The position numbers were made by a program, and so were the translations under genes. From Candidatus Hydrogenedentota bacterium (GTDB taxonomy: Bacteria; Hydrogenedentota; Hydrogenedentia; Hydrogenedentales; SLHB01), in contig BTWA01000016.1 of NCBI GenBank assembly GCA_045863295.1, positions 31,058 through 95,057 of the forward strand: a stretch of 64,000 nt of DNA, in the 5' to 3' direction. Position 1 is the stretch's first letter. Each line of letters opens with the position of its first letter. This document shows positions 1 to 17,923 of the stretch, piece after piece. A model generated the notes under the pieces. The model made no database searches. It saw only the letters and a program-made list of their open reading frames with translations, and was not told where the DNA came from.

Positions 1-488
1 AGGAAGGCTCGCATAGTCTGGAGGGTCGCGACCGATACGTCGTCCCACGCCGCGTGCTGCAAGCCACTCCATGGGTTCAGGATGTTTCCAGAAACGGTCG
101 CACCAGTCCCGTTGTGCGGTGGATGCCATAGGTAGAAAAAGGCCTCGCAAAGGTGAAAGACGCTCTTGAGTCCGAGACCAAATTTCCCGACACTGGCCCG
201 CTCGGCAGCCTTGTAGCCCAAACCGAATAGGCGAATCGCCTTTTCGTCCGCACCCGTAAATTTACCATCATTAACGAAGAAAACGGCAGGACCTCGCAGC
301 AACGGGTGAGCATCATCCGGAAAACCAGGGCACCAGCCGAAATCTAGGCAGGTGGCTTCCGCCGCGTCATCGGCGTTCTGTAAGATCTCCTTGATAATAG
401 GGAAGCCCTTGGCGTACCGGTCATGTAGGTTGTCCCGGATGAGCTGTATATGCGCCGCCGGGGGCGTTTCGAATCCTCTATTCGACAC
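1..488 (-). CDS. Sacsin-like GHKL (HATPase) N-terminal domain protein, 5' part only (runs off left edge)
   Basis: Manual translation from GTG at 488 (AGGGG upstream) is open to position 1: MSNRGFETPPAAHIQLIRDNLHDRYAKGFPIIKEILQNADDA...HPLLRGPAVFFVNDGKFT...SVGKFGLGLKSVFHLCEAFFY. ExxQNADDA, NDG and GKFGLGxKSVF are sacsin/GHKL motifs. Confidence 0.88.
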   Translation of the reverse strand, partial: MSNRGFETPPAAHIQLIRDNLHDRYAKGFPIIKEILQNADDAAEATCLDFGWCPGFPDDAHPLLRGPAVFFVNDGKFTGADEKAIRLFGLGYKAAERASVGKFGLGLKSVFHLCEAFFYLWHPPHNGTGATVSGNILNPWSGLQHAAWDDVSVATLQTMRAF

Positions 489-605
489 TAAGAGTCCCCT
501 GGTGTCATTCCTTATCAGCTACAGCCACACGACACAGTCGCAAGCTGTTCATTGCCTAATTTCGAGTCGCATGACTTCACTCTGCGGGAACTGCCGATGC
601 CGCAC

Positions 606-788
606 CTACCGAGTCTGATCTTCGCGATCTTCACTCTGCACGTACTTTTCCGCTGCCTCCCTCACGACCCACGCCAGGGATACTTTCTTCCTTCTGGCGA
701 TGCGTTCTAATGCCCTGTAGAGTTCGGCAGGAAAGCCAATGGAGGCCCGCACCAGCGCGCCCTTTCTCTTCGATTTGACCTTCTGCAC
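606..788 (-). CDS. CopG/ribbon-helix-helix transcriptional regulator
   Basis: RASIGFPAELYRALERIARRKKVSLAWVVREAAEKYV fits the RHH beta-alpha-alpha pattern. Likely start is GTG at 788, preceded by GGGAGAGG. Confidence 0.85.
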   Translation of the reverse strand: MQKVKSKRKGALVRASIGFPAELYRALERIARRKKVSLAWVVREAAEKYVQSEDREDQTR

Positions 789-800
789 AATACCTCTCCC

Positions 801-816
801 TGTGGTGATCACCACA
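801..816. promoter_or_regulatory. Perfect 16-bp palindrome, putative operator of the RHH gene
   Basis: TGTGGTGATCACCACA lies directly upstream of the RHH RBS; a second inverted pair CACC-GAATT-GGTG is at 820-832. Confidence 0.6.
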
Positions 817-1103
817 TTACACCGAATTGGTGCGTATCGGCAAAATTACGCCACCCCGGTATCGTGGCAGTCTGGCGGGAATAACAGGCTCCTAGCCGGG
901 AAGACCTTACTTTTGAGCAAACGGTACAGGGGAGCCGCTCACCAAGGAACGGCCGGTTCCAGGTAGAGAGGTATGCTCGTCGGGTACTAGCATGGCGACG
1001 ATCAGAAGAGCGAAGGTATGGCGGGACGGGCGGGACCGGCTGAAATTGAACTGCGTCAATAAGTTTACTTATTCGGAGCGATTCAATGCGGAGAAAACGA
1101 TAA

Positions 1104-2276
1104 GTGAAAACCAAAGAATGGCGAATGACTCGTCAAGAATTCTACGAGCATCTATGGAGCAAGCCCATGAAGGTTTTGGAAGAGGAACTCGGGATTTGGT
1201 ACGGCCAGATGCTGGGAATAATTCGAGACTACAAGATTCCTCAACCGCCGATGGGACACTGGATGAAGGTCCAACATGGAAAGTCCGCTCGCAAGCCGCC
1301 ATTGGAACCACTTCCCGGCAAAGAGGAAATCGTGTTGAACCTTTACGTGCCAGATGAACGTCCGTACGACGAGCAGCAGAAGCAGCAGGCGGAGGGCTTG
1401 CTCGCAAAGGATTCGAGCCCAGAGAAACGTATCGTCGTCCCGAATGAGTTGACCGACGCTCATCCGTTGGTTATGAGGGCGGAACGGAGTCTTCGAAATG
1501 CGAGTGCAAATGAAAGACAACTGTTGATCCCGTCTGCGAAGAATTGCCTTGATATTCGTGTGTCGAAGGAAGCTTTGTCTCGTGCGTTGCGAATCATGGA
1601 CGCACTGATCAAAGCACTGGAAGCCCGAGATATTGCCGTTGAACTTACCGGGGAGCGAGACATTCCGACACGCGTCATCGTCTTGGGAGAGACATTTGGG
1701 ATAGGCCTTGCGGAAAAGGTGGATCGGCGGGAAAAGGAACTAACGCCGCAACAAAAGAAGGAAAAGGAGTGGCACTCATGGATGTACAGTCGGCAAGAAT
1801 TCACGTACCATCCAAATGGTCAGTTTGTACTCAGCATCAAAGAAGGTCGCACAAGCTATGGTCGACAGAACTGGTCGGATGGTAAAGTGCAGCGGGTCGA
1901 AAACCTGCTTAACAAGTTCATCTGCGCGTTGTACCGTTCCGCGGTCACCGCTCGTTCGGACCGGATACAGCGCGAAATTGACGAAGCGAAGCGACTGGAA
2001 AAACAGCGGAGGAATGAAGAACTGCGGCGACTGCAGCAGATTGAGCGCGCACGACTCGAGAACCTGGAGAAGCACGCCGAATTGTGGAAGCGCAGCCAAA
2101 CGATCAGAGCGTATGTTGGGGCCGTCCAGGAGCGGGCCGACAAAGAGACGTTTACATACGGAGACCTTCCGGTGACGGAATGGATAGACTGGGCGCTTCA
2201 GCAGGCCGATCGCCTTGACCCACTCTGTGTGAGCCCTTACTCCGTGCTTGACGAGAAGGTAGACTCGTGGTGGTAA
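1104..2276 (+). CDS. Conserved hypothetical protein of genomic islands (N-terminal HTH-like region, C-terminal coiled coil)
   Basis: 390-aa ORF with GGAG upstream. N-terminal TRQEFYEHLWSKPM..L..ELGI......I...YKIPQPPMGHWMK resembles a family I recall near island integrases. C-terminal W..WA...AD.LDP motif. Confidence 0.75.
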   Translation: MKTKEWRMTRQEFYEHLWSKPMKVLEEELGIWYGQMLGIIRDYKIPQPPMGHWMKVQHGKSARKPPLEPLPGKEEIVLNLYVPDERPYDEQQKQQAEGLLAKDSSPEKRIVVPNELTDAHPLVMRAERSLRNASANERQLLIPSAKNCLDIRVSKEALSRALRIMDALIKALEARDIAVELTGERDIPTRVIVLGETFGIGLAEKVDRREKELTPQQKKEKEWHSWMYSRQEFTYHPNGQFVLSIKEGRTSYGRQNWSDGKVQRVENLLNKFICALYRSAVTARSDRIQREIDEAKRLEKQRRNEELRRLQQIERARLENLEKHAELWKRSQTIRAYVGAVQERADKETFTYGDLPVTEWIDWALQQADRLDPLCVSPYSVLDEKVDSWW

Positions 2277-2575
2277 TTGCACAACGAGACCTGAGTGAGT
2301 CAGCTCTGGGGTCAAGAACGACGTTGCGAACAGATTTCCTGCTCTTCAGGTGATACTCAATTTGATAATTACAAATTGACGACCATGGTGAAAATGGTTA
2401 AGATGGGAAGGTGGTGAGGAGCGAGCGTATCTCGCTCTGTTGTCGTAAGTTATAGATTTTGTAAGTACTTGTGGCGGCTTGGGTTAAGACTCTCATAACC
2501 CAAAGGTGCGGGTGGTCGTAACTTTCGAGACTCGGCCAGTTTACGTAAGTCAGAAGTGCCCAACTGATACTTGAC

Positions 2576-2812
2576 TTGATACACACGAAGAAAGCCCATT
2601 CAAGTTCCGAATCGCCATATATCTCCCCCAAGCAATTAGCCGCTCGGTGGTGCTGTTCCCGCTCCACGGTCGACCGCATCACGGCACGACACGAATTCAC
2701 TCGAGTGTGCCTCGGCGAAGGAAAGAACGGCATCGTGCGCTTTCTCGTCGAGGAAGTTGAGCAGTTTGAACAATCGCGGACAGTGCCGAAGCCGGCTCGG
2801 CGCTCCAGATAG
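2576..2812 (+). CDS. Excisionase-like helix-turn-helix (HTH_17/AlpA-like) protein
   Basis: YISPKQLAARWCCSRSTVDRI...GKNGIVRFLVEEVEQFEQSR is the winged-HTH pattern of MerR-like excisionases. Confidence 0.75.
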   Translation: MIHTKKAHSSSESPYISPKQLAARWCCSRSTVDRITARHEFTRVCLGEGKNGIVRFLVEEVEQFEQSRTVPKPARRSR

Positions 2813-3058
2813 CTCTGTTTCCGCCCGTCTCTTCCGCTGTTCGCAGTTACTCATTTCCGCTCGCACGCCGGATCGAAGAGAAATCAACGGCCCACACATG
2901 CTGTCATCGGTTAAGCTCAAGCTACCCAGGACGGCACCGGAATCACTCTATCCCAAATGGAATCGAGCCAATCGCAGGTGTTTTGTGATCTCTGAAACCT
3001 CTTGTCTTCTTCCGCCGCTCATTCAGTGCGGAGGTCAATTCTACAGGAGTCGACTAAG

Positions 3059-3472
3059 ATGCTTGATGATCGAACGCTGCCAAAGCATGTTGGAGAGCCC
3101 GAGCCTCCGCTTAGGTTGACTCGTGACGCCGACCTAGATGACAGACTCCTTGACGAGGTCGGCGGACAATTCCACCCAAGCGTAGACACCAGACTTGATC
3201 GGGATTCACGTGACCGCTTCATACTTTGCCCCCGTGATGAATTCATACCGGGACTTGGCGACCAATTCTGGGCCGGACGGCACAACTCTTTCCAGCCGAA
3301 TTCGGGCGATGGTTTTCTACCGGATCCGCATGACGGCTTTGCTCCAGGTTCACATGATGGGTTTCTTCATGGCACTGGCGATATTTTTCGGCCGTCCCCA
3401 GGCGATGCCTTTCTTCCAGATCCGCGCGATCGATTCTCGCCGGACTCTGGTGACGCATTTCCACCAGCCTAA
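3059..3472 (+). CDS. Hypothetical protein built from about 14 tandem 8-aa repeats (consensus D-x-F-x-P-x-x-G/R/H)
   Basis: AGGAG RBS before ATG 3059. Repeats DRLLDEVG GQFHPSVD TRLDRDSR DRFILCPR DEFIPGLG DQFWAGRH NSFQPNSG DGFLPDPH DGFAPGSH DGFLHGTG DIFRPSPG DAFLPDPR DRFSPDSG DAFPPA. Confidence 0.7.
   Translation: MLDDRTLPKHVGEPEPPLRLTRDADLDDRLLDEVGGQFHPSVDTRLDRDSRDRFILCPRDEFIPGLGDQFWAGRHNSFQPNSGDGFLPDPHDGFAPGSHDGFLHGTGDIFRPSPGDAFLPDPRDRFSPDSGDAFPPA
3140..3469 (+). repeat. Degenerate 24-bp tandem repeat (coding)
   Basis: 24-nt periodicity, e.g. GATGGTTTTCTACCGGATCCGCAT / GATGCCTTTCTTCCAGATCCGCGC / GATCGATTCTCGCCGGACTCTGGT. Conservation is stronger at the amino-acid level than at the DNA level. 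Confidence 0.8.
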
Positions 3473-3535
3473 TATGGTTGCTTACAATCTTCGGACGTAT
3501 ACGCTCAACACCGTAGTGCTTACATCCGACTCCGT

Positions 3536-3760
3536 CTACCGCGGGTCGCCCGTGCGGTCCTCGAGGGCCTCGTAGATGGCCAGCAGCGCCTTCTCCCGCC
3601 AGTACTCCAGCCGGAAGACCTCGACACCCACGTCCCGGCTAACCGCGTCCAGCGGCTCACCGTTCAACAGTCGTAACACCACATCGCACTTACGCTGCGC
3701 ACTCCAACGTTGCTTCGGCCCCAAGAGACCCTGCTTATCTCCCTTCGATTCCTTGCTCAT
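3536..3760 (-). pseudogene. IS3-family transposase orfA remnant, truncated, no catalytic orfB
   Basis: RWSAQRKCDVVLRLLNGEPLDAVSRDVGVEVFRLEYWREKAL matches IS3-type orfA HTH proteins. It stops early, before the usual leucine-zipper segment, and no DDE domain follows. Confidence 0.65.
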
Positions 3761-4085
3761 AACCCGTCCTCCTTGGTTCACAATTATCTCAAATTCGGAT
3801 CCAATAAAACTGAGCCCGGCTTACGCGTAATTGTTCACCAGTTTCGTGCTCTACGAGACATTTGAACTTTGCGGCAAGATGGAATCTGGTGAAAAACCGG
3901 CTCAGTGGCCTTCTCCAAGCTATTGTCCCTGCGTGGTTTAGCGAAGAAAATAGACGCGATGGTCCAGTTCTCACATCAAGCCGGAAAGGCGGAGGTCCGA
4001 ACGACCCTATGCGAGACCTCATTCAACGGTGCATGAAGGTCCCGAACACAAGCGAAAGCCTCGCCCCCTCCCATCCATTCCCGCG

Positions 4086-4115
4086 TTGCATCATTTATGT
4101 GGCATTAATTATGAT
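4086..4115 (+). promoter_or_regulatory. Putative sigma70 promoter of the HTH-recombinase/integrase operon
   Basis: TTGCAT (4086-4091) - 18 nt - TATGAT (4110-4115); ATG at 4123 follows 7 nt later with no Shine-Dalgarno. Confidence 0.45.
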
Positions 4116-4122
4116 AAGACTT

Positions 4123-4701
4123 ATGGACTCGAAGACCTTCACAGTTCGTGAAGTAGCGGAGCGGCTCGGCGTGGCAGCACCCACGGTATATCACTGGGTT
4201 GCCAACGGCGTGCTGAGACACACGCGGAAATCGAGACGAATTTTGTTTACTGATTCCGATCTTGTCGAATTTGCGCGATCACGCTACGTTCCGCGTCAAA
4301 GAATCAGACAAGGCCAGGCGGAAGACGTCTTGAATCCTCTGCGGCGGGGACCTCTCGGATATGCAATCGTCGAGAACAAGATTCGCTTGATCCCCGATGA
4401 GGCTAGGCTGGTCCGCTTTGTCTACGACGTTTACGCTTTGGCCGGTGACTTGGACTGGGTTCTGCGTTTCCTGAACACTCGCTCCATGTTTCCTGCGGAT
4501 GGCACTCCATGGACCCGGAAACTGCTGTACGCTCTGCTTTCAAACCCCATCTATAAGGGCAGGCTCCCCATAGCCAAACGGAAGGAACTCGCATCAAAAG
4601 TAGATTTTAGGCGTGAAGTCTTCCAGCCAATCGTGAGTCGCGAACTATACTCCCGAGTGCGAATCCTGCTCGACCGCGAGCAACGGAGTGATGAATCATG
4701 A
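4123..4701 (+). CDS. Fusion of an excisionase-like HTH_17 domain and a non-catalytic 'Recombinase' DNA-binding domain
   Basis: N-term FTVREVAERLGVAAPTVYHWVANGVL...RRILFTDSDLVEF. C-term GPLGY...PDEARLVRFVYDVY...LN...W....L..LLSNPIYKG...PIVSRELYSRV aligns by eye with the Recombinase domain of the adjacent LSR. No resolvase catalytic domain. ATGA overlap with the next gene. The track start (3862) is probably too far upstream. Confidence 0.85.
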   Translation: MDSKTFTVREVAERLGVAAPTVYHWVANGVLRHTRKSRRILFTDSDLVEFARSRYVPRQRIRQGQAEDVLNPLRRGPLGYAIVENKIRLIPDEARLVRFVYDVYALAGDLDWVLRFLNTRSMFPADGTPWTRKLLYALLSNPIYKGRLPIAKRKELASKVDFRREVFQPIVSRELYSRVRILLDREQRSDES

Positions 4702-6296
4702 AATCGTGCGGCTTGTACGTGCGTGTCTCGACAGACATGCAGGCGCAGGTGAGAGATGGCTCTCTTGACACGCAAGAAGACAAATTGCGCGCGTATGTCA
4801 AGCTTCGGGATTCATCGAAGGAGAGTTGGCAGGTCGTAGAGGTGTACCGTGAAGAGGGACGCTCTGGGGCAGATGATTCTCGTCCACAGTACACACGGCT
4901 CATTCACGACGCGCAAAGCGGCCGAATCAATGTTGTCCTGTGCACGAAATTAGACCGTTTTTCTCGGTCGCTTCTGGACTTTTACAAGGCATACGAGCAG
5001 TTCCAGGCGAAGGAAGTTGATTTCATCACGCTTGAGGAAAACTTCGACACCTCGACGCCCGCTGGTCGAGCGATGCTAAAGATCGCTCTCGTTTTTGCGG
5101 AGCTAGAGCGGGAGCAAACATCAAAGCGCACGAAGGACAAGATGGAGTGGCGGGCACAACAGGGCCTCTGGAACGGTGGACAGATACTCGGTTACGACAT
5201 CGACCCCGACGACCACGGTATTCTGAAGATGAATCCGGAAGAGGCTCAGATTGTTCAACTGATATTCAACACCTATCTTGAGACGCATTCGTACCTGAAG
5301 ACAGCGAAAGTTGTGAATGAGAAGGGGATTCGCTCGAAACAGTTTCACTCGCGTCGAGGAAACCTTCGAGGGGGGAACACTTTTCAGGACACCACGATAG
5401 GACACATCCTTCGGAATCCAGTTTACATCGGCAAGGTCACACACAACGGGATGATTTACGAGGGAAAACACGATGGCATTATTCCACCTCCATTGTGGGA
5501 AGAAGTTCAGGAGTGCATCAGACTATATGGTCCAAAACGGAGTGGCGGCCGACAACACCGATTACACGTTTTTCTTTTGGAAGGACTCGTTGAGTGTGGC
5601 TGGTGTGGCGCCGCAATGACTCCGAAATTTGCCCATGGACAAAACAAGAAGCGGTACTTCTACTACCAATGCTCGCGAAATGACCATCGGGGCAAAGATG
5701 GCTGCAAAATGAAGTATGTGCCGGCAGAGCCACTTGAACGTCTCGTATCAGAGCGTATAAAGGACATCGCAACCGACGACAACTTGCTCGAGGGGATCGT
5801 CCAAGAGGCAAACGAAACGTCGAAAACCGAGCGAGACGAAATCGCGAGGAAACGAAAGCTGCTGAGCAGACAACTCGCCGAAGTGAAGCAGACGGTCAAT
5901 AATTGGTTAGACCTAATCGGCAACGGTACGGCCAAGAAAACAGGCTCGGCCACGACGTTGCTGGAGCGGATCGGAGAGGGCGAGAAACGGCGGAAGGAAC
6001 TTGACCAAGGATTAATGGAGCTGGGTCTCCAGGAGGGGGAACTGAAGAAGAAAATTCTTGACGCCGAGATTATGCGGGACTCCCTAGACAGGTTCCGAGA
6101 CCTTTTTGACGAGGCTCAGGAAGAGGAAAAGAAATTCCTGCTCCAGTTGATGATAGCCCGCATCATCTGGACGCCCGAGGAAATAAAGATCGCCCTGTAC
6201 GATCGTCCGACCGATACAGGGCGATTATCGACCAACTCCAGCGTAAACCGCGACGGCGAAGTTTCGCTGGAGATCGCAAACTGGCTCCGCGGGTAG
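4698..6296 (+). CDS. Large serine recombinase (integrase): resolvase catalytic, Recombinase, zinc-ribbon and coiled-coil domains
   Basis: YVRVST catalytic motif, KLDRFSR, FAELEREQTSKR, LGY..PEEA..V, LRNPVYIG, CGWCG...YYYQC...GC zinc ribbon; 532 aa. Confidence 0.97.
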   Translation: MKSCGLYVRVSTDMQAQVRDGSLDTQEDKLRAYVKLRDSSKESWQVVEVYREEGRSGADDSRPQYTRLIHDAQSGRINVVLCTKLDRFSRSLLDFYKAYEQFQAKEVDFITLEENFDTSTPAGRAMLKIALVFAELEREQTSKRTKDKMEWRAQQGLWNGGQILGYDIDPDDHGILKMNPEEAQIVQLIFNTYLETHSYLKTAKVVNEKGIRSKQFHSRRGNLRGGNTFQDTTIGHILRNPVYIGKVTHNGMIYEGKHDGIIPPPLWEEVQECIRLYGPKRSGGRQHRLHVFLLEGLVECGWCGAAMTPKFAHGQNKKRYFYYQCSRNDHRGKDGCKMKYVPAEPLERLVSERIKDIATDDNLLEGIVQEANETSKTERDEIARKRKLLSRQLAEVKQTVNNWLDLIGNGTAKKTGSATTLLERIGEGEKRRKELDQGLMELGLQEGELKKKILDAEIMRDSLDRFRDLFDEAQEEEKKFLLQLMIARIIWTPEEIKIALYDRPTDTGRLSTNSSVNRDGEVSLEIANWLRG

Positions 6297-6357
6297 GACT
6301 CGAACCTACGACATGGTGGTTAACAGCCACCCGCTCTACCAACTGAGCTACCGCGGA
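6282..6357 (-). tRNA. tRNA-Asn (anticodon GTT), CCA encoded
   Basis: Reverse complement TCCGCGG TA GCTC AGTTGGTA GAGC G GGTGG CT GTT AA CCACC ATGTC GTAGG TTCGAGT CCTAC CCGCGGA G CCA folds into a perfect 76-nt cloverleaf. Confidence 0.99.
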
Positions 6358-16588: not shown

Positions 16589-17923
16589 CTATGGCTTTCC
16601 AATACAGTACAAGTGTCCGGGCGTACGCAGATAAATGCGGTTTCCGGAAATCGCAATCGTGGACAGCGTGTGATTCTCGCCGGGCAACGTGTTCGTCGCA
16701 ATCTTCCTGTAGGTGGATCCCGCCGCGATTACCGTTGTGGTGCCCGCTTCGTTCGTTATGAATATCTTGCCATCCGCCACGATCGGCGATGCACTGATGG
16801 TACCTTCGGCAGCATGCTCCGGCCCCCACACGATATCCCCGGTCTTCGCATTCAGGCAGGTCGCAACGCCTTTGTCGTCCACCATGTAAAAGTATTGGCC
16901 GTCGCACGCAGGCGTGGGAACGTCCGGTCCGTACGCTTCATCCCATTTCCAAGCAAGATGACTGGTGGAAACGTCTCCCGTTCCACCCGCCTTGATCGCG
17001 AGCAGCGGCCGCTGCCGCGTCGGCGCATACACCATGCCATCCACCGCAACCGCCGAAGCAATCGTACGGAAGTTTCCGTTGTTCTTCGGATTCAATCCCC
17101 CTGCCCGCCACACTTCCGCACCTGTATCCGGATCGTGCGCCGATACGAAGCCGCCGCCGCATACGATCACCCGCGTCTTGTCGCCTTCTTGAATAATCGT
17201 GGGGGTATTGTATGCATCCGGCGTTTCCGACGGTTCATCCGTGGGTCGTTCGACCCGCCAGAGTACGTCACCGGTCTTCGCGTCCAATGCAACCACATAG
17301 GAAGGATCATCGGTGTTCATGCCGTGAAGCACCTGCGCTATCAGCTTGCCGTCATGAAGCAATGGCGACGACGCATATACGAAATTCAAACCGAAAGGAC
17401 CATACATCTCCTGCAGATTCTTGGACCACACCTTGTCGCCGTCCATGGTCATGGCGGTGACCGCGCCCGTGCCCGTCACGGTCCACACATGCTGGCCATC
17501 CGTTACCGGCGTCGGACTCGAGCTATTGCCTTTCCGGCCAAGTTCATTGCCGGAAGCCAACTCCTTCTCCCACAGGATCTTTCCGTCGGCCTTTGAAATG
17601 CACAACAACAAGATCTGGTTGCCGCCCGGGCTTTCAAATCGGCCGTTCGGATTGCGCGCCGAGTCACCCTCGCCTCGCGACGGCGTGGTCAGATAAATGC
17701 GATCACCCCACACTACCGGCGAACTTCCGCTCCAAGACGGCAATTCCGTTCTCCACACAATCCCTTCCGATTCGCTCCACGTTTCCGGCAATCCCGTGGC
17801 GTCGCTCACCCCGGATTGATCCGCACCACGCCATTGCGGCCAATTGTCATCCGCAAGTGCGGAAGAAGACGCGGAAAACACAATGCCAAAAGTCATCAGT
17901 CGACGCATGAGTCGTGCAGCCAT
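16589..17923 (-). CDS. PQQ-binding-like beta-propeller repeat protein
   Basis: Signal peptide, NWPQWRG, SSPVVWGDRIY, repeated ALDAKTG..LW blades. Confidence 0.9.
   Translation of the reverse strand: MAARLMRRLMTFGIVFSASSSALADDNWPQWRGADQSGVSDATGLPETWSESEGIVWRTELPSWSGSSPVVWGDRIYLTTPSRGEGDSARNPNGRFESPGGNQILLLCISKADGKILWEKELASGNELGRKGNSSSPTPVTDGQHVWTVTGTGAVTAMTMDGDKVWSKNLQEMYGPFGLNFVYASSPLLHDGKLIAQVLHGMNTDDPSYVVALDAKTGDVLWRVERPTDEPSETPDAYNTPTIIQEGDKTRVIVCGGGFVSAHDPDTGAEVWRAGGLNPKNNGNFRTIASAVAVDGMVYAPTRQRPLLAIKAGGTGDVSTSHLAWKWDEAYGPDVPTPACDGQYFYMVDDKGVATCLNAKTGDIVWGPEHAAEGTISASPIVADGKIFITNEAGTTTVIAAGSTYRKIATNTLPGENHTLSTIAISGNRIYLRTPGHLYCIGKP

Follow-up and report, generated by a model that had tools for sequence, protein, structure and literature searches.

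Known integration systems and the locus under study

Phage-type large serine recombinases (LSRs), e.g., phiC31, Bxb1, A118/LI, and TP901-1, target protein-coding or intergenic sites. Archaeal integrases of the SSV1 type are tyrosine recombinases with attP inside the int gene and a tRNA gene as the target; the int gene is broken by integration, leaving two parts that are both inactive. In mycobacteriophage BPs, which is likewise served by a tyrosine recombinase, attP reportedly resides in the 3' end of the repressor gene, and the lost tail is said to be a degradation tag. The subject of the present work is an LSR gene from a 64,000-nt stretch of DNA (hereafter, the window) of a Candidatus Hydrogenedentota bacterium, the last codons of which lie antisense inside a tRNA-Asn gene. 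With an estimated probability of about 0.75, the positions 6282-6296 represent attR, the right junction of an integrative element whose LSR uses the 3' tip of tRNA-Asn as attB. Here and below, coordinates are positions in the window, whereas related loci, genomes, and contigs are designated with L-, G-, and C-numbers, respectively.

Short att sites (about 40-50 bp) with a 2-bp crossover and no long direct repeats at the flanks are typical of LSRs. The phage-type LSRs resemble the window enzyme in the domain order and would share with it a short att identity and the lack of long flanking direct repeats. Unlike them, the window LSR would target a tRNA 3' tip, its att site would overlap its own stop region, and its P arm would double as a hairpin in the tRNA trailer. 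The likeness to the SSV1 type includes an att site within the integrase ORF, a tRNA target, and an integrase gene altered by integration; the difference is that only the last few codons would be exchanged here, so the integrated gene is complete (the ORF is whole, with 532 aa and all domains). As in BPs, the att site is at the 3' end of a gene, and the C-termini would differ between the integrated and free states, but the gene in question is the integrase itself and its free form is deduced by analogy. The Islander-type islands, i.e., tRNA/tmRNA islands of tyrosine integrases (P4, SXT-like), share with the window island a conserved tRNA, an adjoining integrase, a tRNA left functional, and frequent defence cargo. 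At the same time, 15-50+ nt of the tRNA become duplicated in such islands, with a displaced fragment as the trace, whereas here the enzyme is a serine recombinase, the common block is about 7 nt long, and the 37 kb lying left of the tRNA revealed no tRNA-Asn fragment of at least 13 nt.

According to the Islander paper, no tRNA gene is known as a target of serine integrases (PMC4383910), and tRNA goes unmentioned in a large LSR survey (PMC10083194). Sporadic cases have been reported: an LSR replaces the tyrosine recombinase in 27 of 937 Prochlorococcus elements comprising tycheposons and related cryptic elements (10.1101/2020.12.28.424599), and the Paracoccus phage vB_PamS_Pami6 possesses a serine recombinase with a predicted tRNA-Met site (PMC6536676). 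An att site situated within the final codons of the integrase, host-encoded tails, or such a pattern clade-wide were not found described in the open-access literature in its available portions. What would be new is the class of target used by a serine integrase as well as the att-in-ORF layout, both seemingly defining a broad clade.

The integrase and its overlap with tRNA-Asn

As follows from the ORF listing and translation, the LSR comprises 532 aa, ends in ...SLEIANWLRG, and has its stop codon TAG at 6294-6296. The domain set of the LSR is complete: Pfam detects Resolvase (PF00239, 6.9e-38, residues 6-157), Recombinase (PF07508, 2.8e-18), and Zn_ribbon_recom (PF13408, 2e-15). Along with the four Cys of the zinc ribbon and the coiled-coil region described below, these domains are the features expected of an LSR. 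In a 30-sequence alignment, R9, the catalytic S11 (Ser11, located within YVRVST), R87, and R90 are invariant along with the zinc-ribbon residues C300, C303, C325, and C336; L481 is the last invariant column, and P493 and L500 are the last nearly invariant ones. The AlphaFold2 model obtained with a 30-sequence alignment (mean pLDDT 82) features long helices at 361-452, corresponding to the coiled-coil region, and a last beta-hairpin at 486-500, beyond which residues 505-532 show a pLDDT <50. The 90% cluster of the integrase consists of three members, each 532 aa long; therefore, it contains no free-form variant. An identical integrase is also encoded by a 5.7-kb contig from the sequencing run DRR491770.

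The tRNA-Asn(GTT) gene, the sole tRNA-Asn gene among the 43 tRNAs found in the genome (96% complete), is convergent with the LSR gene and has 15 nt in common with it. The sequence at 6282-6296, TGGCTCCGCGGGTAG, reads TGG CTC CGC GGG TAG in the LSR frame and, reverse-complemented, gives tRNA positions 62-76, comprising 4 nt of the T-stem, the acceptor 3' strand CCGCGGA, the discriminator G, and CCA. The stop codon TAG of the LSR arises from the T-stem CTA, and the tRNA itself is intact beside the integrated element, as judged by ARAGORN and Rfam. An earlier note on this DNA claimed that the integrase C-terminus and stop codon are encoded antisense within tRNA-Asn; this claim is exact, as confirmed by the ORF translation and the ARAGORN/Rfam predictions.

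Position of the crossover

In a family-wide comparison, copies carrying the same element arm in different contexts part 7-10 nt into the tRNA. Two element copies (L040 and L050) from a single Latescibacterota metagenome-assembled genome (MAG; CBDAOB01), 99.9% identical over 7.8 kb, reside at tRNA-Met and tRNA-Glu; past the element arm, they have only TGGTAGC in common and mismatch from +8. Since only these 7 terminal nt are common to both targets, the pair suggests a relaxed target recognition or a recognition of the tip plus the T-arm. The arms of L047 and L048 are 100% identical beside different tRNA-Asn genes, with the mismatch from +9, and L033 and L061, located at two tRNA-Gln genes of one genome, mismatch from +11.

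A comparable breakpoint emerges when copies residing at a tRNA are aligned with those lacking one. L137, situated beside tRNA-Asn, encodes an LSR of 527 aa ending in ...NWLPR, vs. 543 aa ending in ...KWLRLSDEVRSYFKGSFEIKP in L131, which has no tRNA and where restriction-modification cargo comes next; these loci are 85% identical as far as TGGCTCC and unrelated beyond, with the divergence at +8. Other non-tRNA contexts (the viral contig L076 as well as L024, L044, and L054) retain TGGCTCC(CC) and then diverge as well.

Two other genera (L017 and G011) likewise carry the island block of the window at tRNA-Asn, with 83-87% nt identity. The element arm up to 6281, including the hairpin and a 9-nt spacer, is 87-90% identical in the three genera, and the DNA past the tRNA 5' end is unrelated among them. 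The G->A change at 6292 turns Gly532 into Glu in L017 and G011; since this base covaries with tRNA position 7, it is considered to be host-derived. The seven LSR-free tRNA-Asn sites found in the same bacterial family all encode TGGCTCC. Taken together, the family breakpoints and the covariation at 6292 would place the crossover at 6282-6291, most likely inside TGGCTCC. The proposals that the att site lies inside the integrase ORF and that the stop codon is host-derived, both made originally from the letters of this locus, gain backing from breakpoints located 7-10 nt into the tRNA and from the covariation in three genera.

A mechanism can be proposed on these grounds. In this clade, the very 3' terminus of the integrase ORF would accommodate the att site, with the poorly conserved final ~28 codons representing the P arm. 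The strands would be exchanged inside the 7-nt TGGCTCC, and the integrated ORF would extend along the antisense tRNA as far as a chance stop, in this case TAG. Trp529-Leu530 would then come from the shared core, and Arg531 (in part), Gly532, and the stop from the host; no long tRNA duplicate would be required or left. The hairpin of the P arm, beginning 8-10 nt past CCA, may end or process the tRNA transcript, thereby shielding the element from antisense read-through.

Distribution of the pattern in the LSR clade

The survey encompassed the 120 best LSR homologues (40-93% identity), with the 113 full-length ones used for the tail count, and 51 related loci with a definable LSR stop in public genomes from about ten phyla. 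The C-termini of the homologues repeatedly turn out to be the antisense translation of tRNA 3' halves, e.g., ...NWLPGQDSNLQPSG, ...WLPREDSNLGPSG, ...GSGGGIRTPDPWIMIPLLYQLSYAAT, and ...ARTGFEPVLPA. Motifs of this kind occur within the last 50 residues of 92 of the 113 full-length homologues vs. 1 of 113 in a control window; the tails of the “WLxG(xDSN)” type, which the earlier note had expected in homologues, are plentiful among them. The GSGGGI tail recurs in nine further homologues, the same tail being present at tRNA-Met in L030.

At the level of loci, the LSR frame terminates within an antisense tRNA in 32 cases out of 51, with overlaps of 13-109 nt; the tRNAs involved are Asn (23), Gln (3), Glu (3), Met (2), and Asp (1). 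Four more loci, all from Omnitrophota, harbor a tRNA-Asn the anticodon loop of which is split by an intron of 220-710 nt. The record titles of the related loci name Hydrogenedentales, Omnitrophota, Planctomycetota, Latescibacterota, Desulfobacterota, Myxococcota, Bacteroidota, Ignavibacteria, KSB1, Kryptoniota, and one Woesearchaeota MAG. The overlap of LSR and tRNA is far above the chance expectation, judging by these two frequencies (32/51 loci and 92/113 homologues). The inferred recombination at the tRNA tip is accordingly best viewed as a trait of a large, little-described group of serine integrases and not as a one-off. Because this group would recombine at the very tip of tRNA genes, the host would supply the last residues of the enzyme along with its stop codon.

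The intron-bearing tRNA-Asn genes of Omnitrophota (L137 2233-2520; L019, L020, L022, and L023) are missed by ARAGORN. At these loci, the LSR frames continue into the intron antisense, yielding conserved-looking tails, e.g., GYDLTPITRRVGLSL.

The hairpin in the tRNA trailer

On the tRNA strand, the window hairpin begins 10 nt past CCA (dG -23.6, z -2.3); across the loci, the hairpin onset is 8-10 nt past the tRNA end. The 65 nt past CCA, corresponding to the last ~22 ORF codons, fold with a mean dG of -22.1 kcal/mol, whereas control segments from these ORFs yield -11.7 kcal/mol (mean z -3.2 vs. -0.2; Wilcoxon p = 2e-7, n = 39, a generous value since the loci are related). In at least nine loci from Planctomycetota, Desulfobacterota, Myxococcota, and Bacteroidota, the hairpin is followed by a T-run, hence representing a canonical intrinsic terminator. 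The seven LSR-free tRNA-Asn sites possess a native terminator hairpin about 8-15 nt past CCA, suggesting that the element replaces the terminator it displaces. In addition, the DNA motif GTAACCAC/GTTAACC, located 38-42 nt upstream of the core, is kept in differing reading frames, which points to a constraint at the level of nucleic acid as well.

The open reading frame and the variable tail

In the 96 nt preceding the junction, the 41 loci examined contain 2 stops in the ORF frame vs. 67 and 91 in the other frames; judging by these counts, the frame up to the junction is clearly kept open by selection, which may leave room for some function of the tail. The tails of antisense-tRNA peptide vary from 2 to over 30 residues, have an arbitrary sequence, and differ even for one element at its two sites (L040/L050).

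The related pair described above differs in its tails, PR in L137 (tRNA) vs. RLSDEVRSYFKGSFEIKP in L131 (non-tRNA). This pair, together with the other non-tRNA contexts, is the reason to believe that the tail of the free form is different; for the window element, an excised form with another C-terminus can be suggested by analogy only. The earlier expectation that the circle encodes a different C-terminus is thus backed by analogy, through the pair L137/L131; the attP of the window island was not located.

Searches for the left end of the island

The displaced 3' fragment of the tRNA, which the earlier note expected at the left end of the island, was found neither in the 37 kb to the left nor in the whole genome apart from a single match discussed below. 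Flanking repeats of at least 12 nt within 10 kb were also absent from the 32 related loci, and the breakpoint comparisons limit the shared att block to 7-10 nt at most. The lack of a displaced fragment therefore agrees with a serine-integrase site whose identity block is very short, and not with the geometry of a tyrosine integrase. No convincing dyad symmetry was revealed between the P arm and the candidate P' arms, and the two-copy elements of Latescibacterota had their left ends either past the 10-kb flanks or mosaic. Two-copy elements occur, among other records, in CBDAOB01 and OX638329.1.

Several candidates for the missing end were rejected. The copy of TGGCTCC at contig position 16722, the best of four candidates on the left side, is inside a gene with 54%-identical homologues. 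The sharp homology boundary at ~585, shared with G011, G116, and L017, is actually a junction of a cargo module after a ribbon-helix-helix (RHH) gene. A 22-nt motif at C16:17288, considered as a P' arm, is tRNA-fMet-like and also occurs beside an LSR-free element (G114), and the attB reconstructed with it would lack the CCA encoded by all seven empty sites. The sole whole-genome match to a tRNA fragment, a tRNA-Asn-derived element on contig C17, has its own terminator, so it is not the island end.

The latter element (G000:C17:35252-35337; L002 ~1433-1518) is identical to the real tRNA-Asn in the D-arm, the last 20 nt, and CCA, and its anticodon and T arms are swapped for GC-rich hairpins. A related unit of 75 nt forms a 9.4-copy tandem array, 99% identical, in the genome G116 (L201 1981-2686).

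Alternative explanations

A number of observations weigh against the integration at the tRNA-Asn tip by the adjoining LSR. The left end of the island and its attP were not located by homology, motif, and repeat searches to the left, where TGGCTCC occurs just four times in 37 kb, always within ORFs. There was no empty site from a close relative: the 40 relatives compared include only family-level ones, in which the synteny is lost. The inferred crossover is bounded by comparison rather than by an observed exchange, and it is an assumption that the non-tRNA contexts (L131, L076, and others) represent attP forms in the un-integrated state. The terminator role of the hairpin is doubtful in the window, since this hairpin has no T-run. 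Moreover, the LSR of G003 has a P-arm hairpin (AATGTGAGAAC..GTTCTCACATT) that shows homology, with a compensatory change, to the terminator in the trailer of a G015 tRNA-Asn lacking an LSR (L145 2950-3024 vs. L146 6629-6700). The shared hairpin may be what is left of an element, or else an arm taken over from a host; in some lineages, the hairpin could be host DNA, with the crossover further upstream.

Extended to the window, the latter possibility would make 6236-6281 a native host terminator and about 20 codons, instead of 2-3, host-derived. Apart from the G003/G015 homology, it is favored by native terminators lying at an equal distance from CCA. Nevertheless, it appears improbable, given that the hairpin and the spacer match in the three genera to the same extent (87-90%) as the integrase gene does, trailers native to different genera are unalignable, the hairpin is 100% identical beside different tRNAs in L040/L050 and L047/L048, and L131 retains it without any tRNA. 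A crossover deep in the tRNA (in the T-loop or the anticodon loop), with the element carrying its own copy of the tRNA 3' part, would be the classical layout of islands in tRNA genes, as outlined in the Islander paper (PMC4383910), and would also leave tRNA-Asn intact. In that case, the C-terminus and the stop would be element-encoded and the same in both states. This geometry is very improbable in view of identical arms parting 7-10 nt into different tRNAs, of the missing 3' fragment in this genome and at the 32 related loci, and of the base at 6292 tracking position 7 of the host tRNA. It is similarly hard to believe that the adjacency is coincidental and the island is a dead relic placed by another integrase and no longer mobile. 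The absence of a detectable attL and the composite nature of the neighbourhood, a defence island including a tRNA-fMet-type module, would agree with a relic; the clade-wide tie to tRNA tips, the presence of the same element at tRNA-Asn in three genera with unrelated flanks, and the intact ORF with all catalytic and zinc-binding residues speak against it. A decay of attL in the window copy is possible and would be compatible with the proposed integration at the tRNA-Asn tip.

A different question is whether the exchange of the C-terminus is a designed state-dependent switch, as the earlier note surmised, in which the changed tail alters the stability, activity, or directionality of the integrase and/or the convergent transcription of the tRNA silences the integrated int. 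The frame kept open to the crossover and the different tails of L137 and L131 would be in line with a switch, and the integration-dependent immunity of mycobacteriophage BPs is said to offer a precedent. On the other hand, arbitrary tails which are not even constant for one element, and which are predicted with a pLDDT below 50, lend a switch no support. Motifs resembling a degradation tag were not seen in the listed tails of homologues and loci, which were inspected by eye rather than subjected to a test. On balance, the switch is unlikely.

The surrounding island

The features discussed above and those of the adjacent part of the island are summarized in Table 1. The ORF upstream of the integrase probably has an internal true start, and its product could be an accessory, directionality, or targeting factor.

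Table 1. Features of the integrase locus in the window.
Feature	Position	Strand	Remarks
LSR (integrase)	4698..6296	+	Resolvase, Recombinase, Zn-ribbon, then coiled coil; low-confidence tail 505-532
tRNA-Asn(GTT), CCA encoded	6282..6357	-	ARAGORN; Rfam tRNA 71.6 bits
Antisense overlap, 15 nt	6282..6296		Codons W529, L530, R531, G532, and stop vs. tRNA positions 62-76
TGGCTCC identity block (tRNA terminal GGAGCCA)	6282..6288		Common to LSR-free tRNA-Asn sites and non-tRNA attP-like contexts
Covarying base	6292		G in the window, A in L017 and G011; tracks tRNA position 7 (G vs. A)
Inverted repeat CTCCAGCG(N21)CGCTGGAG	6236..6272	-	In the last ORF codons (element P arm); no T-run
ORF with HTH_17 (excisionase-like) and Recombinase domain, without catalytic domain	3862..4701	+	Stop overlaps the integrase start (ATGA)
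Remainder of the block moving with the LSR in three genera	2508..4697		Small ORFs, no family matches
Module common to tRNA-fMet-integrating elements	585..2507		RHH gene 606-815 (-), 390-aa gene 1104-2276, att-like site 2479-2507

The module at 585-2507 belongs to the island, yet it is not the left end of the LSR element. It represents, together with L165 1344-6690, the right end of an element family integrating into tRNA-fMet; in G116, the borders of the element are marked by a direct repeat comprising 40 nt of the 3' part of tRNA-fMet. The 390-aa gene of the module yielded no match in Pfam or PHROG, and its product is a candidate unrecognised integrase. The homology with G011 and G116 starts sharply at ~585, after the RHH gene, and the defence genes next to this point differ: a sacsin-like protein of 2556 aa and SNF2 in the window, HEPN-SNF2 and a sacsin-domain protein in G011, and a NERD-kinase in G116.

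The defence hotspot beside the tRNA, covering the window positions 1-815 and G000:C16:1-31545, encodes the sacsin-like 2556-aa protein, SNF2 and ResIII helicases, HTH-SNF2-NOV_C, and a SAVED-domain protein. Between the cargo genes, there are two short hairpins (C16:17288 and C16:21135) that are conserved in G011 as well.

Implications

Integration of this kind would contradict, for a whole clade, the working rule that tRNA genes serve tyrosine integrases only (PMC4383910). Island finders seeking a tRNA together with a displaced fragment will miss such elements, and the integrases predicted by gene callers will end in meaningless tails of host origin, e.g., WLPGQDSNLQPSG. The design would be compact, with about 70 nt operating as the coding sequence, the recombination arm, and the tRNA-trailer hairpin. 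LSRs that naturally target the conserved 7-nt tRNA tip plus the T-arm may become landing-pad-free tools for bacteria without genetic systems.

There is also a slim chance that the att-in-ORF coupling of the clade constitutes a built-in sensor of the integrated vs. free state, tuning the level or directionality of the integrase; the reason to entertain it is that selection keeps the frame open to the crossover. If true, each integration would rewrite the C-terminus of the enzyme and put the 3' end of its gene under convergent transcription of the tRNA. Overall, since the defence hotspot adjoins tRNA-Asn, the proposed mechanism would bear on the movement of defence systems among uncultured phyla.

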